Assembly: GCA_964406775.1 (NCBI GenBank)
Contig: CAYOSW010000005.1
Coordinates: forward strand, 1,362 to 65,361
Source: an uncultured Gammaproteobacteria bacterium
GTDB lineage: Bacteria; Patescibacteriota; Microgenomatia; Daviesbacterales; UBA10151
Direction: 5' to 3'
DNA length: 64,000 nucleotides
Position numbers and translations under genes: made by a program. Below, in pieces: positions 12,721-60,155 of this stretch; the stretch's first letter is position 1, and each line of letters starts with the position of its first letter. The notes beneath the pieces are model-generated. The model had not been told where the DNA came from, did not search any database, and saw nothing but the letters and a program-made list of their open reading frames with translations.

Positions 12721-13550
12721 TATTTTGTCTCCTCTTCAGCTTTTACCTCTTCGGCCGGAGCTTCATTTACTTCTTCTTTTGGTGCTTCAGCTGCGGGCTC
12801 GGATGCGGCGGCTTCTTCAGGAACCTCTGTTGTGTCTCCTGCTGCCATTTGTTCTTTATCTGAAGGTACTTCTTCCTCGTCCTCTTTCTCTTCAGGAGGA
12901 GGTGTATAACCTTTGATAACGCCGGTTTTTGTAATTAATACGAGTCCTCCGTAAGGACCGGGGATTGAGCCTTTAATACTGACTACGTTATTTGTTCTGT
13001 CAACTGCGATCACTTCAAGTCCGCGGGTTGTTGCTGTTTCCGCACCCATATGACCTGCCATTCTTTTTCCCTTTAAAACACGTCCCGGAGTTGTACCCGT
13101 ACCGATTGATCCCGGTGCGCGGTGCCTGTCCGATTGTCCGTGTGTTTTAGGTCCTCCGTGGAATCCGTGGCGTCTCACGCCTCCCTGGAAACCGCGTCCT
13201 TTTTCGGTTCCGGTTACTTTAACTTCATCGCCTTTTCTGACAACCTGATTGGCTTTAATTTCTTTACCGTTTTCCAGTCCGCTTAAATCGCTCTCCTGGA
13301 CTCTTACTTCTTTTACGAATCTTAAGTTCTCGGCAACTCCGGCTTTTTTGAAGTGTCCCTGCTGAGGCTTCTTTACGCTTTTTTTGGTGGATGCTGCGAT
13401 CTGTACGGAGTTATAGCCTTCTTTATCGGTAGTTTTAATTTGAGTCACGAAATTGGGCTCAACTAAAACTTTAGTTATAGCCACTCTGCGGCCGCGGGTA
13501 TCATAACCCGAACTCATCTCTTTTTTTATACCAAGTATTGTTTGAATCAC
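12720..13550 (-). CDS. rplC: 50S ribosomal protein L3 with acidic C-terminal extension
   Basis: 276 aa ORF with the L3 core (MIQTILGIKKEM...GKGFQGGV.RHGF). Roughly 60 aa E/P/A-rich tail. The start codon is GTG on the minus strand (plus-strand CAC at 13548..13550, reverse complement GTG). Confidence 0.9.
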   Translation of the reverse strand: MIQTILGIKKEMSSGYDTRGRRVAITKVLVEPNFVTQIKTTDKEGYNSVQIAASTKKSVKKPQQGHFKKAGVAENLRFVKEVRVQESDLSGLENGKEIKANQVVRKGDEVKVTGTEKGRGFQGGVRRHGFHGGPKTHGQSDRHRAPGSIGTGTTPGRVLKGKRMAGHMGAETATTRGLEVIAVDRTNNVVSIKGSIPGPYGGLVLITKTGVIKGYTPPPEEKEDEEEVPSDKEQMAAGDTTEVPEEAAASEPAAEAPKEEVNEAPAEEVKAEEETK

Positions 13551-40607: not shown

Positions 40608-41096
40608 TTACGGAGTATAAGAATTCAAAGGATCAATTTTAGGTACAAGCTCCGTTATCGCCCGGATTGTATCTCTTGGCCTATAAATACTGCCTTCCTC
40701 GGGGAGCTGTAGGCCTTTTCGGGATAAGTTTTGCGTAGTCCAAATCGTATACGCACCTATCTCATTTCCCGCCCTGATTTCCTCCTCCAGATTATCACCA
40801 ACCACTGCACTCCCCTGAGGCTCCACACCCATTCCCACCAAAAGAGCTCCGAAATCCTTCCTCGGTCTGCCTGATCTGAAATCTAAGATCTCCACTGTCG
40901 AGAAAAAACGGGTTAAACCAAAAGCGGCTAATTCATCTTCCCTGGAACTTGCATACCGGGCAATAGTAACTAAAGCCAGTCTGATTTCACGGTCTCTTAA
41001 CTGCTGGAGCACATCAACAACCCCTGGAAAGAGTTGTTTTGTGTCAGGATTGCCTAAAGTTCTGCCGAAATCAAACACCACCGCTTCAATTTTCAT
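40608..41096 (-). CDS. HAD-superfamily hydrolase
   Basis: 162 aa ORF with HAD motif I DFGRT (VVFDFGRTLG) at the N-terminus and a motif IV-like GDN. Confidence 0.7.
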   Translation of the reverse strand: MKIEAVVFDFGRTLGNPDTKQLFPGVVDVLQQLRDREIRLALVTIARYASSREDELAAFGLTRFFSTVEILDFRSGRPRKDFGALLVGMGVEPQGSAVVGDNLEEEIRAGNEIGAYTIWTTQNLSRKGLQLPEEGSIYRPRDTIRAITELVPKIDPLNSYTP

Positions 41097-41228
41097 CGGA
41101 GGATTATACTAAAGAGGATCAATAGAGTCGCAGTTTACGGTTGCGGGGAGTGGAACAGATTAGGAATTGTTTTCTTGCATAGTATAATTTGCCGTTAGTA
41201 ATCATTAATATATTCGGATAATAATTAG

Positions 41229-42215
41229 ATGAAAGAACCTGGATCTGGTAAGCAAATTAATTTTTTAGATGGCTATCAACTAGTATCAGTTAGAAGTGGA
41301 TACAATAACGAAATTGGTATTTGGGAACAACCAGAAAAACCACGAATTGTTACCCGGAAGCTCAGAGAAATGGGTTCTGAATATGCTGATTTATCTGTAC
41401 TATCCCCCTCTTTAAGTCCCGATAAGCTAGAGAAAGAATTCGTATTACTCAGATTCCTTGAAGGTCGACACCTGCCGATAGCAAGGTGTCTCTATCATGA
41501 GCCGTCCATATCAGTATATGAGTGGGCCGCTGGGAAAGAACTTGATTTTGAAGAGTTTAAACAACACCCTATCAAACAAAGGGTAACAATGGGAACTAAC
41601 TTGGGCGGATTTTTAGGAAAATTTCATAACTCACAGAAAAGTAGCGAAGGCCAGAAATTGATCAATCAGGTTCCGGGTCAATTTGGCCATACTACTCTTA
41701 GAGAAAAACATCTGTGGAGGCTTGATTCAAGTATTAGGTATTTAGAACAACAAGGGGCAATCGATGGAGATACGGCAAAAAGAGTTAGGACCCTAGGAAC
41801 AAGTCGGATCAATCAAGTTCCAGAAACTTCATTTAGAGTTATCCATGGAGATTTATATTCACGAAACATATTTATAGATCCTAATAATTTCGACATTACT
41901 GCTGTTATAGACTGGATTGATGCATCAGAGGTAGATGATCCTTACGCAGATTTACTCTTAACGGCAAGGTGGTATGGTTTTAATGATGATTTAACAGATC
42001 TTGATCTCCAATCGAATAGAGATTCTTTCTATAGTGTTATTCGAGGATATGAAGACCTAACCCACACTAAGGTAGAACAGGATCCACTAGAATTGTTTAA
42101 AACTTATGATTTATTGTGGCATATGAGGGTTTTGGTTGCGGAACAAGCTAAGAGAAATAATCAAATCGTAAAACAGTTTGGAGCAACACTACATAACCTT
42201 CTAAAACAAATGTAA
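41229..42215 (+). CDS. aminoglycoside/choline-kinase-family phosphotransferase (APH fold)
   Basis: 328 aa ORF with the Brenner motif HGDLYSRNIFID and IDWIDASEVDDPYADL (the D of DFG-equivalent). Markedly AT-richer than its neighbours. Confidence 0.7.
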   Translation: MKEPGSGKQINFLDGYQLVSVRSGYNNEIGIWEQPEKPRIVTRKLREMGSEYADLSVLSPSLSPDKLEKEFVLLRFLEGRHLPIARCLYHEPSISVYEWAAGKELDFEEFKQHPIKQRVTMGTNLGGFLGKFHNSQKSSEGQKLINQVPGQFGHTTLREKHLWRLDSSIRYLEQQGAIDGDTAKRVRTLGTSRINQVPETSFRVIHGDLYSRNIFIDPNNFDITAVIDWIDASEVDDPYADLLLTARWYGFNDDLTDLDLQSNRDSFYSVIRGYEDLTHTKVEQDPLELFKTYDLLWHMRVLVAEQAKRNNQIVKQFGATLHNLLKQM

Positions 42216-42287
42216 TAGTATTTCTCAAAGATCGTTCGTTGAATGCCTAACCTACTATTTTACTGTAATAATTGAAGCTAAAATACT

Positions 42288-42305
42288 TGGTTGCGGGGAA
42301 TGGAT
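42288..42305 (-). repeat. partial direct duplicate of the tRNA-Met 3' end (att-like)
   Basis: ttgcggggaatggat (15 nt exact, 42291-42305) repeats the 3' acceptor/T-arm end of tRNA-Met at 42416-42430, about 110 bp away and in the same orientation. Confidence 0.5.
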
Positions 42306-42412: not shown

Positions 42413-42414
42413 TG

Positions 42415-42486
42415 TTGCGGGGAATGGATTCGAACCATTGACCTTGAGATTATGAGCCTCACGAGCTACCACTGCTCTACCCCGCG
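42415..42486 (-). tRNA. tRNA-Met (anticodon CAU), initiator-like
   Basis: The reverse complement folds as a cloverleaf CGCGGGG-TA-GAGC-AGTGGTA-GCTC-G-TGAGG-CTCATAA-TCTCA-AGGTC-AATGG-TTCGAAT-CCATT-CCCCGCA-A. It has a C1:A72 mismatch as in initiator tRNA. CCA is not encoded. Confidence 0.85.
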
Positions 42487-42505
42487 AGTGAATTATACTC
42501 CTAAG

Positions 42506-42859
42506 CTAGTGAAGAAACAACCTTAGCCAGCCTTGCCAGTTCGGAATTTTAATTTCAGGGGGTTTAACATCGGGGGTCAGAACCTTATCCACCATTTCCT
42601 GGGGAATAATTACAACTGTTTCGTTCGGAAGCGACATATTTAAGTCGTTCCGGGCAATTTCCTCTACGGAATCATAGCTTTCAGCCTGGGCCAGCTCTTT
42701 TTTTAGCTGTTTATTGTCCCTTTCAAGGCTTCCGACATCCTCCAGTAACTGGTTCAAACGTTTGTCACTGCCCAAAGCAAACGAGATCTGCTTGACCAAT
42801 CCGATCAAGATGACAATAGCCACAATAATAATAACTATGACAGACAATTTTTTATACAT
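42506..42859 (-). CDS. FtsB/DivIC-like septum formation initiator
   Basis: 117 aa ORF with an N-terminal TM helix, a coiled coil (LLEDVGSLERDNKQLKKELAQAE) and an ARNDLNM motif as seen in FtsB/DivIC. Confidence 0.6.
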   Translation of the reverse strand: MYKKLSVIVIIIVAIVILIGLVKQISFALGSDKRLNQLLEDVGSLERDNKQLKKELAQAESYDSVEEIARNDLNMSLPNETVVIIPQEMVDKVLTPDVKPPEIKIPNWQGWLRLFLH

Positions 42860-43017
42860 TTGGATTACTATTGCGTTATGAACTCATCATTTAATGCGTA
42901 TTTCCCAAAACCTGCTTTCAGATCAAAAAAATCCCTTTTCACCGCTTCAATTTAATCCTATAATTATTATTCATTACTTGACATTCGGTTTGCTAAATTA
43001 TAATATTATGGGACATT

Positions 43018-43887
43018 ATGATTAGCCTTAAAGACGCACATCAGCAGTTCGTTGGCCATTTAAAGGGCAGAAACCGGGCTGCAGCTACAATTCTAGCTTA
43101 CGGTAAAGACATTGAGCAACTCATTAACTTTTTAGTTTCAAACGGAAGAGAGATGTCTGAGAGTGTTTTGACCGAAGATTTAAAGCTTTTTATGGATAAA
43201 TTGAGCAAGGAAAACTACACTCCTAAATCAATTTCCAGAAAAACCAATTCGACAAAAACTTTCTTTAAATTCTTAAAAACTTCAAATTTGATCCCGGATG
43301 ATCCGGCCAGATCCTTAGAACACCCTAAATTTGAGAATAAACCGCCGAGAATCTTATCCGAACTTGAATACCGGGCGTTAAGGGACGCTTCCCGCTCCGA
43401 TTTAAGAATGTTTGCGATCATCGAACTTTTCCTGCAAACCGGAATCAGAATCGGAGAACTTGCCAAACTTCAGGTTGGTGATGCGGATCTTGATTCCAGT
43501 TCACCTTCCCTGCACATCCGCCCGGAAGAAGGAACAGTCGAAAGAACCATTCCCTTGAATAAACCTGCAGTTGAATCCATCAGAAAATACTTACAGGTCA
43601 GACCTCAAACAGCAAACCTGGCACTGTTTGTCACCAAAACCGGAAAACCTTTACTTATAAGAAACATCAGAACCGCAATCGACAGATATTTCCGCCTTGC
43701 AGGTATTAAAGAGGCCAAAGTTAATGATTTAAGACACACCTGGATTGCTCATCACTTAAAGGCAGGAACTTCTCTGCTCTTAATTTCTAAATTGGCCGGA
43801 CATAAAAGAGTTTCTACTACCGAAAGATATTTACAATTCATTCAGGGAAAAACTACCGAAGGTAAAATCACCCTCGACGAACTCTAA
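43018..43887 (+). CDS. tyrosine recombinase, XerC/XerD-like
   Basis: 289 aa ORF with the catalytic signature R (GIRIGEL), LRHTWIAHHL (the H-x-x-R box) and TTERY (the Tyr nucleophile). Its size and N-terminal core-binding domain are typical of Xer recombinases. Confidence 0.85.
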   Translation: MISLKDAHQQFVGHLKGRNRAAATILAYGKDIEQLINFLVSNGREMSESVLTEDLKLFMDKLSKENYTPKSISRKTNSTKTFFKFLKTSNLIPDDPARSLEHPKFENKPPRILSELEYRALRDASRSDLRMFAIIELFLQTGIRIGELAKLQVGDADLDSSSPSLHIRPEEGTVERTIPLNKPAVESIRKYLQVRPQTANLALFVTKTGKPLLIRNIRTAIDRYFRLAGIKEAKVNDLRHTWIAHHLKAGTSLLLISKLAGHKRVSTTERYLQFIQGKTTEGKITLDEL

Positions 43888-43899
43888 ACCCACAAACTT

Positions 43900-44403
43900 A
43901 TGTCCAAAGATATAATCAGGCCTCCGATGCCGGAAAGAAGTGTTATTGTACCTGTAGAAAGCTTTGGTATGCTACGAAGAGAAGATTTGACACCAGCTTT
44001 CCACCTCTTTGAATACAGGTTTGCGCAACTTACTAGATATATCATTGGGCGTGACTACAAGGGACCTGCATTACCTGAAGGAGTTCAAGAAGTACACAGC
44101 AGAATCCTGGCAGCAGAGGATTCACTGACTCCTGATGGACAGCTCGTAGGATATGCAAAAGTAGGTTATCAAACTCATAATCCAAATGACAAATATTTAG
44201 GCATTGCTTTCGATGGCAAAAGGGGTGTTTTTGCTCAAGCTGAACCTCGATATACCCATCCTGATTTACCATCCGGAATAGATGCATATCATCCTGGATT
44301 TGAGTATTTAGAAATGAATTACTATCCAACCGGAAGTGAAGTTGATTTAGGTAAATTATTAGGAATCCAAGAGAGATTCCAGTGTTTTGTACCTAATCAA
44401 TGA
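43900..44403 (+). CDS. hypothetical protein
   Basis: 167 aa ORF directly downstream of the recombinase. No motif recognised. Confidence 0.4.
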   Translation: MSKDIIRPPMPERSVIVPVESFGMLRREDLTPAFHLFEYRFAQLTRYIIGRDYKGPALPEGVQEVHSRILAAEDSLTPDGQLVGYAKVGYQTHNPNDKYLGIAFDGKRGVFAQAEPRYTHPDLPSGIDAYHPGFEYLEMNYYPTGSEVDLGKLLGIQERFQCFVPNQ

Positions 44404-44894
44404 TTCAAGGTCATTAAAAGTTTATTGTATTCCTTGCTTATTTCCAGATCTTCAAATCCTAATTTTCTATAAAGGGCAACGGCCGGCTCGTTCTCAGGCG
44501 AAACCGAAAGCCAGAATTTCGGATGAGGGTGTTTTTTATATTCTTCCGAATCTTTAAAATCAGCCATAACCTCTTCCGTAAACGGAAGCGCCAATCCTTT
44601 TCCGCGCGCCTTACCGTACAAACGGATAGCAAATGAGATTCCGTATTCTGAAGGGCTCTCCCGGTTTAAATAAAGATCCAAGTCGTGGAACCAGATTATT
44701 CCCAGCAGATTATCTTCATCATCAACCAGAGTATAGTAACTAAGAATTTCTTTTGAGAATTCGTCGAAGCTTTCCCTATTTTTAAATCTCTTCGGATCGG
44801 ATGTATATTTTAATCCTTCGTCAGTTGCCGCGTAATTTATGAGTTGGGAAATCTGCTTATCGGTAATGCCTTTTTTAATTTTGTAATCTTCCAT
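44397..44894 (-). CDS. GNAT-family N-acetyltransferase
   Basis: 165 aa ORF with an acetyl-CoA-binding motif-A-like segment (RLYGKARGKGLA) and the C-terminal YRKLGF motif typical of GNATs. Confidence 0.6.
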   Translation of the reverse strand: MEDYKIKKGITDKQISQLINYAATDEGLKYTSDPKRFKNRESFDEFSKEILSYYTLVDDEDNLLGIIWFHDLDLYLNRESPSEYGISFAIRLYGKARGKGLALPFTEEVMADFKDSEEYKKHPHPKFWLSVSPENEPAVALYRKLGFEDLEISKEYNKLLMTLNH

Positions 44895-44953
44895 AAGATC
44901 TCCCCTCCATAACTTGTTTTGATATCACGCTTGCCGTAAAATATCAACATTCT

Positions 44954-45028
44954 GCGCGGATAGCTCAGCGGTAGAGCGGTTGTCTTATACACAATTGGTC
45001 CCAGGTTCAAATCCTGGTCCGCGCACCA
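44954..45028 (+). tRNA. tRNA-Ile with anticodon UAU
   Basis: Cloverleaf GCGCGGA-TA-GCTC-AGCGGTA-GAGC-G-GTTGT-CTTATAC-ACAAT-TGGTC-CCAGG-TTCAAAT-CCTGG-TCCGCGC-A-CCA. It has a 7-bp acceptor stem, U33 and A37 flanking anticodon TAT, and an encoded CCA. Confidence 0.8.
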
Positions 45029-45031
45029 AAT

Positions 45032-47398
45032 TTAAAGTCGTGCCCGTTCTGAAATATTTGCCTCAACCGCGGCCCGGTCTCTCCCGTATGTCAGCCTGGA
45101 TAGTTCGCGTATCGCCCGCCCGACTTCAGGACGGCGCATTTTTTGCCATTCCTCATAGGACGGGAATGTCGTGTCTACGGAGAAAGGATGAACGGGCTCT
45201 CCCTGCACCTGGGTTTTTACATAGATGTGGCGCGCTTCAATATTAACCAGATCCTGCTCATTAAAAGTAGGCGCAAACTCGTGCTGGAGGAAGTTGGCAT
45301 CGGTGACACCGACACGGAAAGCGATCACCGTACCGACGTTACCGAAAACGGCATTTTTTAACTCCTCGCCTATCTGACCTATAAATTGGTTAGCGACGGT
45401 TAAATTCAGCTTATATTTACGCGCCTCGGCCAAAATTTCAGCAAAAGTGTCGGTTGCGAAGTTTTGGAACTCATCAACGTACAGGAAAAAGTCGCGTCTT
45501 TGTTCCTGAGGAATATCGGTTCGGCTCATTGCAGCGGCTAAAATCTTCGGAACCAGAACCAGCCCTAAAAAGTTTGAATATTCATCCCCGATCCTCCCTT
45601 TTGATAAATTCACAATCAGAATCTTTCCCTGGTCCATAACCTGACGCAGATTGAACGAAGAGACAGATTGGCCGATGATATTTCTCATCATCATATTGGT
45701 AACAAACCGCCCGAACTTTGATACGTTATAATCCAAAATTTCCGATTTATGGAATTCTGCAGTTTGGGCAATCTGGTCGGTCCAATACCTGCGGACAACC
45801 GGATCCTGAACGTAGGGCAAAAGCTCCTTTACGAATTCCGGATCAGTCAAAACACGTACCACCTCAAGAAAAGTATTGCCGGGTTTACTCATACAGGTCA
45901 GCATCGCATTACGGACGTTATGCTCAAACCTCGGCCCGATAATACCGGTTTTATGAGGATCATAAAGCTTGTACATCAGTCCGATGATTGAAGCAACCAC
46001 AAAGTGTTTTTGCTCCTCGGTTGTGGCTTCAAGCATATTCAAACCGAAGGGGCGGGCAGAATCAGAGGGGTCAAAATAAATTACATCCTGGGCGCGGTTG
46101 GGCGGAATCCTCTCCAACATATCTTCCGCCGCATCTCCGTGGGGATCAATAAAACAAATACCCCGACCGGCATAAATATCCTGAATCATCATAGACTTTA
46201 AAAGCTCGGTTTTTCCGGTACCGGTTCTTCCGATGATATACATATGCCTTTGACGGTCAAAATCGGAAATAAACACCGGCCGTTCCTGACCCCGGAATTT
46301 CGATTTACCGATATAAAGACCTTTTGTCGGAATTTTTTCAGGAGGAGGGGCCGATTTGGCGGGAAGCCACTGAATATGCGGAGTTTCAACTTGTTTATTC
46401 GGTAAGTGGAAAAGCGAGGAAATCTCGTCCGCAGTTAAAACGGAAAGTTTATCAAATCTGGGTAGATATCTGTAAACAAAATCTCTGATAAAGCCTTTTT
46501 GTGAAGGAATTTTGGCTCCAGTAAAGCCGTTATACGGCCCGTTAAACTGCTCAAAAGCCGCTTTAATGTTGCCTAAATGAGCCTTAGCGGCTTCCTCCGA
46601 AGTCGAGGATGTAACAATCCGAACTATGGTTGAAAATCCGGCTTTAGTTATCTTTCCCTCGACTGCCTCAAGCTGTTTCTGATCCGGAGGAGCTTTCGGC
46701 TTCTCACCGTCTCCCGGATCGCGCTCCTTTTTCAGGAATTTCTTTCCCGAATTCTTAAAGTCATCGCCTGCAGGAGCTATAAGTAATTGAATTACCGCCC
46801 CTTCTCCCTGCTGCATTTTTCCGAGTGCTGAGGTAATACCTGATAACGGATCTGTCGGAAGCTCCTTATAAGTTTTTATCGGAAAATAATCGGAAGATTT
46901 AAGTTTGTAAGCGGTATAGGCAACCTTGCCGGTTTCCGAAAAAATATTATATTCAGGAACTTCTTTTACCGATGCGTCCGGATATGCTCCGTTGATTTGT
47001 TTTTCAATTAAATCCTGGTATTTTTTATGGCAGGCGACGTAAAATCTGATCGATTCCGGCAGCGCCACAATCTCAAAGGCAATATGAGGTTGGGGCTTTA
47101 AGTCCTTAAACATCCCCAAAAATCCTCCCGCTCCGATTTTTATGGAATACAGAGCTGAGATAAACTGCTCGGCCGCGTCAATTTTTACTTCATTGGCCTT
47201 AGGAACGGTAATTTGCAGCAGTACAAACCCCAATGAATATTTCTCCCGCTCCCGGTATTTATACAGATTCTTAAAATATGGATAAAAATATATCAAAAAA
47301 CCAATCAGAATGAGTGTTCCGAACAGGGCGACTAAAACCAAAACTGCAAAAAACAATAAGTCCGGTCCCTGAGCAACAGTAGTTTGAGTAACTTCCAT
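45032..47398 (-). CDS. membrane-anchored FtsK/HerA/TraD-superfamily P-loop ATPase (type IV coupling-protein-like)
   Basis: 788 aa ORF. Two N-terminal TM helices, Walker A HMYIIGRTGTGKTE and Walker B FFLYVDEFQNF. The architecture resembles VirD4/TraG/TraD coupling proteins. Family assignment is tentative. Confidence 0.5.
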   Translation of the reverse strand: MEVTQTTVAQGPDLLFFAVLVLVALFGTLILIGFLIYFYPYFKNLYKYREREKYSLGFVLLQITVPKANEVKIDAAEQFISALYSIKIGAGGFLGMFKDLKPQPHIAFEIVALPESIRFYVACHKKYQDLIEKQINGAYPDASVKEVPEYNIFSETGKVAYTAYKLKSSDYFPIKTYKELPTDPLSGITSALGKMQQGEGAVIQLLIAPAGDDFKNSGKKFLKKERDPGDGEKPKAPPDQKQLEAVEGKITKAGFSTIVRIVTSSTSEEAAKAHLGNIKAAFEQFNGPYNGFTGAKIPSQKGFIRDFVYRYLPRFDKLSVLTADEISSLFHLPNKQVETPHIQWLPAKSAPPPEKIPTKGLYIGKSKFRGQERPVFISDFDRQRHMYIIGRTGTGKTELLKSMMIQDIYAGRGICFIDPHGDAAEDMLERIPPNRAQDVIYFDPSDSARPFGLNMLEATTEEQKHFVVASIIGLMYKLYDPHKTGIIGPRFEHNVRNAMLTCMSKPGNTFLEVVRVLTDPEFVKELLPYVQDPVVRRYWTDQIAQTAEFHKSEILDYNVSKFGRFVTNMMMRNIIGQSVSSFNLRQVMDQGKILIVNLSKGRIGDEYSNFLGLVLVPKILAAAMSRTDIPQEQRRDFFLYVDEFQNFATDTFAEILAEARKYKLNLTVANQFIGQIGEELKNAVFGNVGTVIAFRVGVTDANFLQHEFAPTFNEQDLVNIEARHIYVKTQVQGEPVHPFSVDTTFPSYEEWQKMRRPEVGRAIRELSRLTYGRDRAAVEANISERARL

Positions 47399-47427: not shown

Positions 47428-47859
47428 TCAGTTGTGTAGCCAATCGACAAATTTTTTAACGGGTCCACGGTTATCTTTTTTCGGCTCAGTTGCAAACTGC
47501 ATCCTCCTGTCCTCTTTCTCAGCTCTTTGGGTCGTAAAGTGATGCGCCTCGCCCACAACGTGGGTCCGGCCGGTGACCAGTTGGTCGGCATAATCTAAAT
47601 GCTCAGAGAGAGTTTTCAGAGGAGACAGCGCTGTTTCCGGCGATCTAAAACTCCCCGGAATTTTGTTTTCCATATCGATTTTACCCTGATCTATAATATT
47701 TTCGGCAGGCTGATCAGGGACGTGCACAGGCTTGACCGCTTCGTATGTCACCGGAACTCCCGCATTTTGCAAATTCCCGGCTACGGATTTCTGGAGATCA
47801 TTAAGACGGGTTTCCGTATATGTAATTTGGGCACTAGGCTGGGCAGGTACTTCGGCCAT
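47428..47859 (-). CDS. hypothetical protein
   Basis: 143 aa ORF immediately downstream of the ATPase gene. No motif recognised. Confidence 0.35.
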   Translation of the reverse strand: MAEVPAQPSAQITYTETRLNDLQKSVAGNLQNAGVPVTYEAVKPVHVPDQPAENIIDQGKIDMENKIPGSFRSPETALSPLKTLSEHLDYADQLVTGRTHVVGEAHHFTTQRAEKEDRRMQFATEPKKDNRGPVKKFVDWLHN

Positions 47860-47892
47860 AAGATCATTATAAACAAAGCTGAGTGTTAAAGT

Positions 47893-48183
47893 CTAAGCAA
47901 GGTTAGGTAAAACACACACAACTCTTCCTAATATTCTTTTTCTTTCAATCCAGGGGTAAGACTTGGAGTCATTACTGTTATCCCCCTTTACTAAAATAAG
48001 CTTATTCTTAGCCTCCGCAACTCTTTTAACAATCACTTTATCCCCGTCTCTGAAGGCAATCAGGTGTCCTTTTTTTGGATTCAAAAATAAATAAGGCAAC
48101 CCCGTTACCAATATTTCCTGACCCGGATTTAGCACGGGCTGCATACTGTGACCGGAAACTTTAAAACGGGACAGAACGATCAT
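47893..48183 (-). CDS. sodX: S26-family signal-peptidase-like maturation protease for Ni-SOD (SodX-like)
   Basis: 96 aa ORF with SGHSMQP (the Ser nucleophile box) and VKRV (the Lys box) of the Ser/Lys dyad. Lies directly downstream of sodN, overlapping it by 4 nt. Confidence 0.65.
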   Translation of the reverse strand: MIVLSRFKVSGHSMQPVLNPGQEILVTGLPYLFLNPKKGHLIAFRDGDKVIVKRVAEAKNKLILVKGDNSNDSKSYPWIERKRILGRVVCVLPNLA

Positions 48184-48689
48184 TCACTTTCGTAAGTAAC
48201 AATCTCGCCCTCTGTGGGGTAGAGTGATTTAATTCTCTTTGGCGTTACTCCCTTGGATTTGTAAAATATTTCAGCAAATTCCTGCACTTTAGAAAGGAGC
48301 TGTCCTGCCGATTCTCTATCTATGTCCTGTTTGGCTTTTGACGCCAGTTTCATTATTTCAAAAACCAGTTGATGAAGTTCCGGGAACTTCTCCAGGTGTT
48401 CAGGCTTAAAGTAGTCGCCCCAGATTACCCTTACCTCGTATTTAATTTTTTCAGCGTGATCTTCTTTAGTCCGGGTAAGTCTGGCTATCTTATGCACATC
48501 TTCGCCGGCCTCGGACAATAAATCCGTCATTCTTATAACCGTATGTGCCGAAAGTTGAGCTTCGTGGGGGTCATATATTCCGCAGGGAATATCACAATGA
48601 GCGTAAATAGTACCTAACGGAAGAAATTTTATAATAAGACTTACAATCCGCATAGTTAAAAATATAACACTTCGCATCACATTAACCAA
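48180..48689 (-). CDS. sodN: nickel superoxide dismutase precursor
   Basis: 169 aa ORF. Leader peptide followed by HCDIPCGIYDP, the Ni-hook (His-Cys-x-x-Pro-Cys-Gly-x-Tyr). Also has conserved GDYFKPEHLEKFPELHQLV. Confidence 0.85.
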   Translation of the reverse strand: MVNVMRSVIFLTMRIVSLIIKFLPLGTIYAHCDIPCGIYDPHEAQLSAHTVIRMTDLLSEAGEDVHKIARLTRTKEDHAEKIKYEVRVIWGDYFKPEHLEKFPELHQLVFEIMKLASKAKQDIDRESAGQLLSKVQEFAEIFYKSKGVTPKRIKSLYPTEGEIVTYESE

Positions 48690-48694
48690 GGATG

Positions 48695-49639
48695 TTATTG
48701 AGTCTTATCCGTAACAGACTGGTTCTCGAGATAATGCTCGACCTCAAAAGTCGCTTTTGTTCCCGCACCGGCAGCTGTCACCGCCTGACGGTATTTAAAG
48801 TCGGATACATCACCCGCTATAAATATCCCGGGGACCGAACTGAGTACTTCATCGCGGACCTTTACGTAGCCTTTTTCATCCAAATCCAAATGTCCTTTCA
48901 GAAAATCCGTTGAAGGTTTGTGCCCGATGGCGATAAATACCGCATCAATCGGCATCTCGGAGACCTGCCCCGAAACCGTATCTTTAAGCTTTACACCCTT
49001 CACCATATCCTCCCCCAATACCTCCTCTATAACTTTATTGAAAAGGATTTCCACATTGGGCTTTGATTTAACCAGATCCACAAGGGCTTTTTGAGCACGG
49101 AACTGATCTCTACGGTGAACTACATAAAGTTTTCCGGCAATCTTCGAAAGATGCTGAGCCTCCCTCATCGCGGTATCACCCCCACCGACGACGATAATAT
49201 TTTTTCCTTTGAAGAAAAATCCGTCACAAACCGCGCAAGCTGAAACACCCCTACCGATTAATTTTTGTTCTGACGGAATCCCCAACCACATAGCACTTGC
49301 ACCTGTGGCAATAATCACGGTTTGGGTTTTTATCTGCTGGGTTTCAGTCTGAATTAGATATGGCTGTTTGGAGAAATCCACAGAAACAACATCCTCATTA
49401 ATAAATCTTGTGGCAAATCTTTCAGCCTGGGCGCGCATTTTTGTCATCAGCTCCGGACCCTGAATTCCATCGGGAAATCCGGGGAAATCATCAACATCCG
49501 TTGTTAACATAAGCTGTCCTCCGGCCGCTCTTCCGGCAACAACCAGCGGATTTAAACCGCCCCGCGCTGCATAAATTGAGGCTGTTAAACCTGCAGGGCC
49601 CGATCCGACAATAACAAGTTTTTCCACTCCCTCACTCAT
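48695..49639 (-). CDS. trxB: thioredoxin reductase
   Basis: 314 aa ORF with FAD motif VIVGSGPAGLTA, the redox-active CAVC, and NADPH motif VVGGGDTA. Confidence 0.93.
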   Translation of the reverse strand: MSEGVEKLVIVGSGPAGLTASIYAARGGLNPLVVAGRAAGGQLMLTTDVDDFPGFPDGIQGPELMTKMRAQAERFATRFINEDVVSVDFSKQPYLIQTETQQIKTQTVIIATGASAMWLGIPSEQKLIGRGVSACAVCDGFFFKGKNIIVVGGGDTAMREAQHLSKIAGKLYVVHRRDQFRAQKALVDLVKSKPNVEILFNKVIEEVLGEDMVKGVKLKDTVSGQVSEMPIDAVFIAIGHKPSTDFLKGHLDLDEKGYVKVRDEVLSSVPGIFIAGDVSDFKYRQAVTAAGAGTKATFEVEHYLENQSVTDKTQ

Positions 49640-57995: not shown

Positions 57996-60155
57996 TTAAT
58001 TCGAGTTTATCTCAAGAGTTATATTTTGGGGTAGTATTGGAAGTCTTAAAAACGGACTCGGCAAATGAGGTGTCACTTTTATATCCGCTCCTATTACGCT
58101 TTCATTTGACTTCAGAATTTCTTCGACTTTATCTGGTGTCTTAAATGTGATTTGAGATTTTAATTTATTAAGGTCAAGCTTAGGCATTAGCTTGGCCTTA
58201 AATTTAGCGGTAAATATTATTTTTCCGTCTTTTTCTACTTTAGAGACCGTCGCCTGAGTCTCGGTTCTTTGCAGATCTAAATCATAACCATCGGGAATAG
58301 TGGTCACAACAAGTTTTCCGACAATACTCTTCAGATCGGTGTCTGAATACGCTGTTCCTTTAAGATTCAAATTCAGAGTTAAAGAAAACTCGGATGCCTG
58401 GTCACCTGGATTTTTCGAGAATGATTGTTTTAAAACTTTTTCTATAAAAGTTTCTTCCAAAATCTTCATATCATCAGTAAGCTTTCCCTGCACTTCTTCC
58501 TGAGCTCTTTTTTTAAGATCTGAGGTTAAAGTTGCCAAAAGCTTCTTCTGATCTTCTGCAGTCACGACAGTTACATCTTTAGATATTCCTCCGGAAAAAG
58601 CCGTATCAACTTTCGCCGAATACTGGTCGGTTCCGAAACCTTTTATGGTCATCTCCTTTCCAGCAGCCAAATTCCCGTCAGGTCCTATGGTTGACGCAGT
58701 GGCACTCGCGGTTCCTTTACCGAAGGAGATCCCACCATCAACTGCGGATTGAGATGCGATATTAACACTAGTATCCAGAACAAAATTAAGATTACCGGGA
58801 CCGATAAGTACAGTCCCCTGAGAGAATGTCTTCGGTGATGCGGTTTTATTATAAATCACAACAGTTCCTTTGGCCGGATCACCGATTTGTTTTTTACCCG
58901 TAGCGGCGGCCTTACTGGTACCGTCTACTGTCGTTTCAACAACTCTGCCCGGGATTTGCTTATTAGCCTCATCCATTGCGGTAATTTTAGGATCAGCAAC
59001 TATCTGGGTCTCTTTTTCAAGGATTTTCGGATCAACAAACATTACTACTGTTGCTTTCGGCAGAAAAACATAGGCCCCGACCAGTACGATGAGAATTATA
59101 AGAGGCACTAAAAGAGTGAAACCGAACCCGCCTGCCAGCCTTAACGGATTAGGGAACCGGGAGAAAAAACCGCCGGTTGAAAACCCGTTTTTTATAGCTC
59201 CACCCATCTTTCTCGGCATATTCGTCTGATAGGCCTCAAGTTCAGTCCGGGCCGTCTGATCTTTTTGCATCTGCTCAATATCACCTTCAGCAAAAGCAGT
59301 CTCATATTTTTCCTCAACAGGAATATGCTTAACCGGCTGAGGCGTGTGTGGAACAGTCGGTGCAATTGGTACAGTCTGGTGATCAAGATGAATATGCGGA
59401 TTAATTTCGGATGCTCCGGCAAAACTCAAGCTTTTTATTTCAATATCTTTCTCGAGCTCCTCAACCTTAGGTAAATGAAGAAAAGGCAACTGTCCCATCC
59501 AATTAAAGGACACCATTTCCTCTCTATAGTGAGACAGCTCACCGCTACCAAAAATTAATATCTTCGCCGGCAATACTTCTATATCTCCGAAGGACAGGAG
59601 GGCTTTCTCTATATCTCTCGGAAGGTTATTCCCCCGGGGCTGGTCTTTTGTGCCTAAAATTTTCCCGGCCTTAACTACTGATATCGAAATCGGATCTCCG
59701 ACTTCGACGATTATCGCGGTCACCGGAACACCGTCCTGACGCTGAAGGTAGTGGCATACTGCGTGCATTGTCGCCACATAAGCCATCGGGACAACATCCA
59801 ACTCTTTGACAAGCTGTTTCAGGACTTTTGAATATTTAGGCTTTAGATCCTCATCCGCCAGCCAGGAATCCGGTACCCCGAAGAGTATCTTTTCAGGTTC
59901 AGGCTGAAAGTCTGCCAGGGCTTCATCAAGGGCTATATTGGCGGCTTCAATTAGGCTGTGGGGGCTTTCCGAAATATCTTCAGGCTCGTGAAATTTTCTT
60001 CTGGCTACGGAAACAATCTTCACTTTACCGCCTTGTATTCCCCAGACGCAACCTTCGGCAATTCCTGGTTTAATATTTAAGCCAAAGTAATATTCTTCCG
60101 GTACGCTTGATTTAGAAGCAGGCAAAAATTTAGACAGACTATCGAGTATAGACAT
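57996..60155 (-). CDS. FtsA/PilM-like actin-fold domain fused via a TM helix to a large extracytoplasmic domain
   Basis: 719 aa ORF. The N-terminus (YFGLNIKPGIAEGCVWGIQGGKVKIVSVARRK) resembles the first beta-hairpin of the FtsA/PilM ASKHA fold. A TM helix (GFGFTLLVPLIILIVLVGAYVFL) follows, then about 340 aa that are Thr/Lys/Gly-rich and beta-rich. Confidence 0.45.
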   Translation of the reverse strand: MSILDSLSKFLPASKSSVPEEYYFGLNIKPGIAEGCVWGIQGGKVKIVSVARRKFHEPEDISESPHSLIEAANIALDEALADFQPEPEKILFGVPDSWLADEDLKPKYSKVLKQLVKELDVVPMAYVATMHAVCHYLQRQDGVPVTAIIVEVGDPISISVVKAGKILGTKDQPRGNNLPRDIEKALLSFGDIEVLPAKILIFGSGELSHYREEMVSFNWMGQLPFLHLPKVEELEKDIEIKSLSFAGASEINPHIHLDHQTVPIAPTVPHTPQPVKHIPVEEKYETAFAEGDIEQMQKDQTARTELEAYQTNMPRKMGGAIKNGFSTGGFFSRFPNPLRLAGGFGFTLLVPLIILIVLVGAYVFLPKATVVMFVDPKILEKETQIVADPKITAMDEANKQIPGRVVETTVDGTSKAAATGKKQIGDPAKGTVVIYNKTASPKTFSQGTVLIGPGNLNFVLDTSVNIASQSAVDGGISFGKGTASATASTIGPDGNLAAGKEMTIKGFGTDQYSAKVDTAFSGGISKDVTVVTAEDQKKLLATLTSDLKKRAQEEVQGKLTDDMKILEETFIEKVLKQSFSKNPGDQASEFSLTLNLNLKGTAYSDTDLKSIVGKLVVTTIPDGYDLDLQRTETQATVSKVEKDGKIIFTAKFKAKLMPKLDLNKLKSQITFKTPDKVEEILKSNESVIGADIKVTPHLPSPFLRLPILPQNITLEINSN

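Follow-up and report, generated by a model that had tools for sequence, protein, structure and literature searches.

A T4CP-family ATPase with a predicted VirB4-like amino-terminal domain in a conserved chromosomal gene order of Microgenomates bacteria

Homologues of type IV coupling proteins (T4CPs) are reported from nearly all Patescibacteria. A recent survey lists 5,713 of them in 2,918 of 3,035 genomes (96%), only 148 being near virB4, together with VirB4 in 2,417 genomes (80%) and relaxases in only 103 (Quinonero-Coronel et al. 2025; PMC12102498). The virB4 locus of Microgenomatia is placed near dnaA/dnaN, and candidate phyla radiation (CPR) genomes are described as having a separate canonical VirB4, with TrsD (PMC12102498). 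In the parts of that paper drawn on here, the orphan T4CPs, those lying away from virB4, are treated as hidden Markov model (HMM) matches only, without an assigned role. We analysed a protein of this family, a membrane-anchored ATPase of 788 amino acids encoded on the minus strand at positions 45032-47398 of a 64,000-nucleotide stretch of contig CAYOSW010000005.1 (positions 1,362 to 65,361; assembly GCA_964406775.1, Daviesbacterales), the whole of which we refer to as the window. We describe its fold, family, conservation and synteny, as well as the lack of mobile-element signatures around it.

An orthologue 70% identical to the ATPase (P0078 in our set) is the Daviesbacteria protein KKR24209.1, which is entered in Table S3 of the survey as 'T4CP, t4cp1' with 75% coverage and VirB4 proximity 'No' (PMC12102498). 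The ATPase is an instance of this known, near-universal orphan T4CP family of Patescibacteria, in a conserved core context. The same table holds a second T4CP entry for the genome of KKR24209.1 (GCA_000995285.1), KKR23392.1, with identical profile coverage, which suggests that KKR23392.1 is a paralogue of the ATPase family elsewhere in that genome.

Three groups of described proteins resemble the ATPase. With the classical T4CPs TrwB (R388), TraD and VirD4 it shares the P-loop motor fold, matching Walker motifs and a membrane anchor, whereas it has one transmembrane (TM) helix instead of two, an extra VirB4-like N-terminal domain of about 280 amino acids, no adjacent relaxase or type IV secretion system (T4SS) gene, and the setting of a chromosomal core gene. 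With VirB4/TrwK it has the two-domain layout and a matching N-terminal domain fold in common; unlike VirB4, it has no VirB3 gene nearby, its motor is nearer in sequence to T4CPs, and it occurs in CPR bacteria that have their own canonical VirB4. FtsK/SpoIIIE belongs to the same P-loop superfamily and is likewise membrane-anchored, and the ATPase here lies near an Xer-like recombinase gene and a divisome gene. It differs from FtsK/SpoIIIE in having a single TM helix against their four or five, no detected gamma domain, which binds XerD and FtsK-orienting polar sequences (KOPS), and a helical tail of 40 amino acids at its C-terminus.

Sequence, predicted structure and relatives of the ATPase

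The C-terminal half of the ATPase gave a weak T4CP signal, narrowly exceeding the cutoffs of two Pfam families, with 26.4 bits for T4SS-DNA_transf (cutoff 20.1) and 24.9 bits for TrwB_AAD_bind (cutoff 20.5). FtsK_SpoIIIE, at 16.2 bits, stayed below its cutoff of 24 and covered residues 373-405 only, Ftsk_gamma was not detected in the Pfam scan, and DUF87 (HerA) scored 21.8 bits where 23.2 were required; these matches, like several others below threshold, were confined to the P-loop. None of the VirB4 families CagE_TrbE_VirB, TraC and P-loop_TraG gave a Pfam match to the ATPase, or to its N-terminal domain even at E values of up to 10; the sole VirB4-related sequence match was to NF045975 (1.9e-4). 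Sequence searches of the PDB reached only TrwB and DotL, in the Walker A region. Homologues carrying the precomputed Pfam assignment PF26449 (DUF8128) numbered 5,625, and those 68-100% identical to the ATPase are all of about 780-790 amino acids. The closest proteins are named Daviesbacteria, which assigns the window to a Candidatus Daviesbacteria (Microgenomates) genome. An exhaustive HMMER search returned 23,206 cluster representatives at E values of 1e-3 or below, many of which are 1,400-2,000 amino acids long and share the motor only. No mention of DUF8128 by name was found in the literature searched.

A preliminary description of the locus, made from the DNA letters, had seen in this protein a T4CP or FtsK-like architecture with two N-terminal TM helices, a Walker A motif GRTGTGKT and a Walker B motif LYVDEFQNF. 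Translation confirmed both motifs (46208-46231 and 45458-45484, minus strand), and they are invariant among 57 homologues; the ATPase is under strong purifying selection. The T4CP assignment was borne out by the Pfam matches, by structural similarity to TrwB and by hhalign, whereas that to FtsK was not. The ATPase is a DUF8128-type T4CP, not FtsK.

We modelled the ATPase with AlphaFold2 from 57 homologues of 37-86% identity, obtaining a predicted local distance difference test score (pLDDT) of 88 and a predicted template modelling score (pTM) of 0.79. In the model, a TM helix is followed by an alpha/beta N-terminal domain, a P-loop domain and a helical tail. Only one of the two TM helices previously proposed was found. 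The single hydrophobic stretch comprises residues 14-42 (47273-47359, minus strand), 29 amino acids that form the sole segment with a Kyte-Doolittle hydropathy of at least 1.6, and AlphaFold2 renders residues 14-47 as one unbroken helix. Foldseek searches of the PDB with the whole model gave the best E value for full-length TrwK/VirB4 of R388 (1.9e-16), followed by the soluble domain of TrwB (E of about 1e-12, TM-target 0.60-0.64) and then by Cag-beta and HerA; HerA matched less well than TrwB and VirB4 did. The N-terminal domain (DUF8128; residues ~56-330, 46409-47233, minus strand) was also modelled alone, with a pLDDT of 95.3 and a pTM of 0.92. The top 14 PDB matches of this domain model were all TrwK/VirB4 chains (E values of 6e-9 to 5e-5, TM-query of about 0.5), and the fifteenth was an unrelated oxidase (E of 1.3e-3).

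The C-terminal P-loop motor (residues ~360-745, 45164-46321, minus strand) matched TrwB in Foldseek and TraD, TrwB and TraG among profiles. An all-helical insert (residues ~461-590) lies between its Walker motifs in the AlphaFold2 model, in a position that may correspond to that of the all-alpha domain of TrwB. The conserved helical C-terminal tail (residues 748-788, 45035-45157, minus strand) carries the motif ELSRL.YGRD...VE..I..RA.L, the residues of which are invariant or near-invariant and which also aligns in a Clostridium plasmid homologue. With an N-terminal domain whose model matches VirB4 chains and a motor that is nearer to T4CPs by sequence, the ATPase is predicted to join a VirB4-type N-terminal domain to a T4CP-type motor.

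Full-length relatives of the ATPase were found on plasmids and in phages. Plasmid records with the family numbered 713, of which 196 are typed conjugative. An 812-residue protein of a linear plasmid of Embleya sp. (Streptomycetaceae; WP_331738717.1, NZ_CP108778.1), annotated as a 'type IV secretory system conjugative DNA transfer family protein', aligned with the profile of the ATPase family at an hhalign probability of 100% and an E value of 3.5e-54, the 672 aligned columns, 27% identical, taking in the N-terminal domain. Its gene lies in the order PrgI (VirB3-like), XF1762, VirB4-like ATPase, T4CP, replication-relaxation protein and NlpC/P60. The VirB4-like neighbour itself resembles the motor of the window ATPase only weakly (hhalign probability 80%). 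The Embleya T4CP and the window ATPase are alike in length and in homology over their full extent, whereas the PrgI, VirB4-like, replication-relaxation and NlpC/P60 genes that adjoin the former are not found near the latter.

Plasmid pCB111 of Clostridium botulinum encodes an 800-residue full-length homologue (hhalign probability 99.8%), which is preceded by a protein of 133 amino acids with two TM helices that scored 27.7 bits for TrbC/VirB2 against a cutoff of 27.9. Among proteins of cultured Bacillus phages, Foldseek matched the ATPase to gp156 of phage G (BFVD; E of 5e-46) and to a protein of phage JL (E of 2e-40, TM 0.68), and ORF201 of 0305phi8-36 has the architecture of the ATPase, as has PHROG 5156 (E of 6.5e-81). 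A VirB-like gene, gp155, lies directly upstream of gp156 in phage G (L099, 89194-93336). In phage vB_BceS-M2 the ATPase homologue follows a small VirB2-like open reading frame (ORF) with two TM helices, within an early replication/recombination module (L098, 34487-37139). The same full-length architecture with a small ORF upstream is common to phage G gp156, the 'MsbA-like' proteins of JL/PBC5 type, PHROG 5156 and the pCB111 protein. These versions differ from that of the window in being borne by mobile elements and only about 20-25% identical, and their small partner is a VirB2/TrbC-like protein with two TM helices, in contrast to the acidic, probably disordered one of CPR bacteria described below.

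Gene order in Microgenomates

The locus was compared with a set of 97 related loci that included 3 large Daviesbacteria contigs and 80 GTDB species genomes, six close relatives among them. Synteny was counted in 82 loci by tblastn and ORF clustering, and the presence or absence of homologues of the window ORFs was scored in 99 loci. Relatives of the ATPase occur in at least 593 species genomes, with identities of 55-75% over Daviesbacteria, Curtiss-, Levy-, Woese-, Shapiro-, Gottesman- and Amesbacteria. The order that recurs in Microgenomates is small ORF, ATPase, tRNA-Ile(UAU), a variable segment, Xer, DivIC and tRNA-Met. The ATPase gene is followed by a convergent Xer gene in 47 of the 82 loci and then by a divergent DivIC gene in 45, and the Xer-DivIC order extends beyond Daviesbacteria to loci in which Xer is only 42-59% identical. 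Of 30 loci scanned, 29 have a tRNA-Ile(UAU) gene immediately 3' of the ATPase gene and the remaining one has tRNA-Glu; taking all loci together, tRNA-Ile(UAU) holds this position in 79. DivIC is followed by one or two tRNA-Met genes, and tRNA-Met adjoins DivIC in most related loci. In the window, tRNA-Ile(UAU) occupies 44954-45028 (plus strand; ARAGORN, Rfam 74.3 bits), 3 nucleotides from the stop codon of the ATPase gene, and tRNA-Met(CAU) occupies 42414-42486 (minus strand; ARAGORN, Rfam 64.3 bits). An Rfam scan found no RNA beyond these two.

Comparison with relatives, which the preliminary description had proposed, showed the whole block to be kept gene for gene where the ATPase is 91-95% identical. 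Identities to the window of the ATPase and of Xer were correlated over 46 loci (Pearson r = 0.90), which fits vertical co-inheritance of the two. The flanks of the block are housekeeping genes, namely those for TrxB, Ni-dependent superoxide dismutase (Ni-SOD), RuvX and YceG, with NrdR and ribonucleotide reductase (RNR) in other classes, and the window also encodes EF-Tu, EF-G, AlaRS, tRNA-guanine transglycosylase and other housekeeping proteins. Upstream of the ATPase gene, Daviesbacteria have TrxB, Ni-SOD and an S26-like peptidase. Other classes have, on the same strand as the ATPase pair and upstream of it, NrdR, a class II RNR of about 800 amino acids and a cobalamin adenosyltransferase; this arrangement was seen in 31 loci, including L025, L028, L029, L034, L043 and L048, at 0.3-6 kb from the ATPase gene. 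Two complete chromosomes, of 763 kb and 811 kb, carry the locus at 82-100 kb and at 30-48 kb, respectively.

A same-strand ORF lies directly upstream of the ATPase gene in 79 of the 82 loci, mostly with gaps of -30 to +20 nucleotides. In 54 of those loci it belongs to one family, which we call up151, with an acidic, probably disordered N-terminal half and a conserved hydrophobic or amphipathic helix at the C-terminus. The Daviesbacteria ORF is too diverged to be detected by the up151 HMM. In the window it encodes 143 amino acids (47428-47859, minus strand), lies 29 nucleotides upstream of the ATPase gene, in a position kept across the class, and has no family match. It evolves fast: in relatives whose ATPases are 95%, 92% and 93% identical to that of the window, its identity is 68%, 60% and 28%, respectively. 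The 143-residue ORF and the ATPase gene probably form one operon, and the ORF is a candidate fast-evolving partner of the ATPase. The preliminary description had ended its unit with the ATPase gene, so that this ORF, which belongs to the unit, was left outside. By analogy with the binding of VirB3 and VirB8 tails to TrwK, the small protein might bind the VirB4-like N-terminal domain. Small ORFs that flank the relatives of about 40% identity in other CPR bacteria (L089 and L090), tested as arrays of VirB2 pilins, gave no Pfam match. A promoter-like sequence, TAGACT-18-TATAAT, was found upstream of the small ORF-ATPase pair (47866-47895, minus strand) by a consensus scan only.

The Xer-like tyrosine recombinase (289 amino acids; 43018-43887, plus strand) matched Phage_integrase (6.4e-27) and Phage_int_SAM_1 (8.7e-12) of Pfam. 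Its best NCBIfam matches, at about 1e-45, all fell under cutoff, with 155.9 against 335 bits for XerC, 152.5 against 220 for XerA and 149.6 against 330 for XerD. Catalytic residues were assigned by alignment to the PDB sequences of XerD and XerA and by an alignment of 48 sequences. The protein is of the same size and two-domain layout as XerC, XerD and XerA, and R-I, R-II, H-III and Tyr are conserved in its 47 orthologues. It departs from XerC and XerD in two residues. The Lys of the beta2-beta3 hairpin is missing in 47 of 47 orthologues ('EEGTVER' in the window against 'GKGNKER' in XerD; EGSNER, ATQPER, EKHPER or EDTRER in other loci), and His-II is replaced by Asn ('NDLR' against 'HVLR') in the same 47, for example at L001:11352-12215 and L048:12862-13728. 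The dif search that the preliminary description had suggested gave no conserved dif-like motif in the Xer-DivIC spacer or the 3' flank of Xer over 45-47 loci by k-mer and palindrome search, which returned only TATAAT promoter-like motifs and tRNA pieces. A promoter-like TTGACA-17-TAATAT lies upstream of the Xer gene (42978-43006, plus strand); it is a match of a consensus scan, which is no evidence of function. The gene keeps its place beside divIC and diverges along with its host, so that the Xer-like protein is a chromosomal recombinase, as the preliminary description had allowed for, and not the integrase of an element.

The DivIC/FtsB/FtsL-type septum-formation protein (117 amino acids; 42506-42859, minus strand) is encoded divergently from Xer. 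It matched Pfam DivIC at 1.5e-13 (50.7 bits, cutoff 28.9) with weak NCBIfam matches to FtsL and FtsB, and it has one N-terminal TM helix followed by a coiled coil.

Possible functions and the mobile-element question

Like other VirB4/VirD4 ATPases, the ATPase would oligomerise at the membrane. Through its VirB4-like N-terminal domain it would attach to small membrane partners, and it would use ATP hydrolysis to pass a macromolecule, either DNA or protein, to a T4SS apparatus encoded elsewhere. The most economical reading, which we hold tentatively and place close to an even call, is that the protein may be the coupling ATPase of the Patescibacteria T4SS. In its favour, a T4SS/relaxase cluster is the setting of the best-understood homologue, and a VirB2-like protein accompanies the Firmicute versions. 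Taken jointly with the reading of the region as ordinary, vertically inherited core chromosome, in which a module of two genes, the small ORF and the ATPase, stands among three unrelated housekeeping items (the two tRNA genes, the divergent Xer-DivIC pair and the short variable spacer), this account seems to us, by a little, the probable one.

Several observations weigh against T4SS coupling. No relaxase, T4SS or pilin gene was found near the ATPase gene, here or in about 90 related CPR loci, and none was present among the window ORFs scanned. The NCBIfam TraD models scored far under cutoff for the ATPase (TIGR03743, 57.4 against 366 bits; TIGR03754, 38 against 647). According to the survey, T4CP homologues occur in more Patescibacteria genomes than VirB4 (96% against 80%), S. 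epibionticum can grow as an epibiont without its t4cp homologue although not without other T4SS genes, and the survey's authors did not rule out an exaptation of the T4CP (PMC12102498). The three Daviesbacteria genomes in the tables of that paper, a small sample of incomplete genomes, show no co-occurrence of VirB4 and T4CP. Finally, the small ORF-ATPase pair occurs in phages and on the Clostridium plasmid with no annotated T4SS nearby, so that the module may act independently.

This last point leads to the idea of a stand-alone, exapted translocase, in which the small ORF and the DUF8128 ATPase would move DNA or protein without a T4SS, for uptake, export or exclusion. The pair is linked in nearly all loci counted and never lies beside T4SS genes in CPR loci, similar pairs on pCB111 and in vB_BceS-M2 stand apart from any annotated T4SS, and the identity of the ATPase between classes, at 57-60%, is very high. 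The excess of T4CP homologues over VirB4 and the dispensability of t4cp in S. epibionticum (PMC12102498) point the same way. However, the small partner in Firmicute elements resembles VirB2/TrbC, a T4SS part, the context of the best-characterised full-length homologue is a T4SS/relaxase cluster, and a VirB-like ATPase is encoded directly upstream in phage G. We regard independent action as a serious rival, though an unlikely one. A role like that of FtsK, with the ATPase pumping chromosomal DNA at the septum together with Xer and the divisome (DivIC) for resolution and segregation of chromosomes, would be attractive and would agree with the Xer and DivIC genes that follow the ATPase gene in several Microgenomates classes, with the co-divergence of ATPase and Xer, with the core-gene level of conservation, and with the position of T4CPs in the FtsK/HerA superfamily, to which the weak FtsK_SpoIIIE match also belongs. 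That match is nevertheless below cutoff, the gamma domain was not detected and the TM helix is single. Moreover, linkage to Xer is absent in Curtissbacteria and in the CPR relatives of about 40% identity, and where present it is no stronger than that to the upstream NrdR-RNR operon, and therefore looks like inherited gene order. There is no dif-like motif beside Xer and no GC-skew switch in the window, and the locus is well removed from mid-chromosome in both complete chromosomes. A motif search of about 1.5 Mb of loci and the window found no canonical FtsK, although these are local neighbourhoods only and uninformative on whole genomes. We consider an FtsK-like role improbable. Less probable again is a more particular version, an unorthodox pair in which an Xer without the canonical Lys and His-II and the ATPase as DNA pump, replacing FtsK or acting beside it, would resolve and segregate Microgenomates chromosomes. 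The conserved order of ATPase, Xer and DivIC and the core-gene level of conservation leave room for it, but it is disfavoured because the synteny is weakly specific and the gamma domain is missing. If true, such a pair would mean that a conjugation motor had been exapted for the cell cycle.

The preliminary description had itself proposed that the locus might be the remnant of an integrated element, which would be an integrative (conjugative) one inserted at a tRNA gene, with Xer as integrase and the ATPase as coupling protein. Outside CPR the family is indeed found mostly on mobile elements, namely the plasmids described above and Bacillus phages. The genes between the tRNA-Ile 3' end and Xer are variable, and the T4SS of CPR bacteria may, in deep time, derive from an element of monoderms (PMC12102498). 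Partial copies of the tRNA-Met 3' end were also found at 42287-42305 (18 of 19 positions) and 41137-41155 (15 of 19). The former, 107 nucleotides from tRNA-Met, was considered as a scar of an attachment (att) site and rejected: it lies on the side of the tRNA gene opposite to Xer, and partial copies also occur at tRNA 5' ends. Whereas 3'-end copies follow 6 of 59 tRNA-Met and 6 of 79 tRNA-Ile genes, the 5'-end control gave 3 of 59 and 4 of 79, and repeats of tRNA ends are therefore not specific evidence of integration. A repeat search of the window revealed no pair bracketing the block, which also lacks a relaxase or T4SS gene. Its tetranucleotide composition equals the window median (29 of 60 windows of 5 kb are equally or more deviant), GC content is flat, and relatives of the ATPase are present on only 2 of the 2.9 million viral contigs of IMG/VR. 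The synteny spans a class-level radiation, ATPase and Xer co-diverge, the flanks are housekeeping genes and both tRNA genes are themselves conserved members of the block. The class-wide synteny already contradicts an element remnant, which we consider most improbable. The preliminary description had named, as findings that would tell against its proposal, synteny of the block throughout the clade and a classification of the ATPase as housekeeping FtsK/SpoIIIE; the former was observed, and the latter was not. T4SS coupling by a vertically inherited motor remains the reading that we prefer.

Variable segments, neighbouring genes and implications

The remaining parts of the earlier inventory were largely upheld. 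ARAGORN, Rfam and Pfam placed both tRNA genes, the tyrosine recombinase, the acetyltransferase and the ATPase as described, and the alternating strands of the genes in the interval are evident in the ORF map. Of the two genes listed as hypothetical, one encodes the DivIC-type protein, whereas the other, hyp167 (167 amino acids; 43900-44403, plus strand), indeed has no family in Pfam, NCBIfam or PHROG. It is lineage-specific, with no homologue in the 99 related loci, and is absent even from relatives with a 91-93% identical ATPase. Its neighbour, a GNAT N-acetyltransferase (165 amino acids; 44397-44894, minus strand), matched Acetyltransf_3 (30.1 bits, cutoff 25.4) and Acetyltransf_1 above cutoffs, and is common only to close relatives, at 47-76% identity. 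These two genes fill the spacer between tRNA-Ile and Xer, which ranges from nothing (L009) to four genes, and the ORFs 3' of Xer are mutually unrelated between loci. The truly variable DNA is this spacer together with the 3' flank of tRNA-Met (~40.6-42.3 kb). The latter carries genes for a HAD hydrolase (40608-41096) and an APH-type kinase (41229-42215) with no homologue in the 99 loci. L095, a relative with a 95% identical ATPase, has no such pair, its tRNA-Met being followed directly by a homologue of a 345-residue gene, and L097 has toxin-antitoxin genes in the same slot.

The tRNA genes show further peculiarities. That for tRNA-Ile(UAU) alone is inverted relative to the otherwise collinear L095, L097 and L087, while being 98.6-100% identical to the genes of L097 and L095; L088, L086 and L004 have the orientation of the window. 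A flip between the complementary arms of the acceptor stem could be the cause of this single-gene inversion. Tandem arrays of perfect partial tRNA copies adjoin tRNA genes in L059, which contains the 3' 18-mer of tRNA-Met eight times, 39 nucleotides apart (12906-13196), and in L025 (10475-10647 and 12266-12335), where the tRNA-Ile 3' end is present in triplicate at a spacing of about 77 nucleotides and copies of 5' ends lie upstream of one tRNA-Met gene.

Upstream of the small ORF in the window, two ORFs (47893-48183 and 48180-48689, both minus strand) encode a 96-residue S26/S24-like peptidase and, next to it, Ni-SOD (Sod_Ni, 1.2e-43); the peptidase is probably the Sod_Ni maturation protease. 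The thioredoxin reductase gene (48695-49639) adjoins them, and the trio is found in many Daviesbacteria loci. Across Daviesbacteria, a few genes separate thioredoxin reductase from the ATPase downstream of it, usually SodN and the S26-like peptidase among them. The NrdR-RNR and thioredoxin reductase neighbourhoods both relate to deoxynucleotide synthesis. Farther away, an ORF of 719 amino acids without Pfam family (57996-60155, minus strand) adjoins a gene for a PMT_2-type glycosyltransferase of 675 amino acids.

A tRNA gene, a recombinase and a T4CP-like ATPase in close proximity mimic the signature of a mobile element; in Microgenomates they form a fixed core gene order. To the published record of orphan T4CPs the present analysis adds the predicted VirB4-like fold of DUF8128, the small ORF linked to the ATPase gene, the gene order of Microgenomates, the full-length plasmid and phage homologues and the atypical Xer active site. 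The Xer clade without Lys and with Asn in place of His is a separate, small lead for the recombinase field. The predicted presence of a VirB4-type N-terminal domain on a T4CP-type motor may bear on the divergence of VirB4 and T4CP ATPases. These results sharpen the description of a protein that about 96% of Patescibacteria genomes encode, as a putative coupling motor with a VirB4-type N-terminal domain and a candidate small partner that evolves fast.

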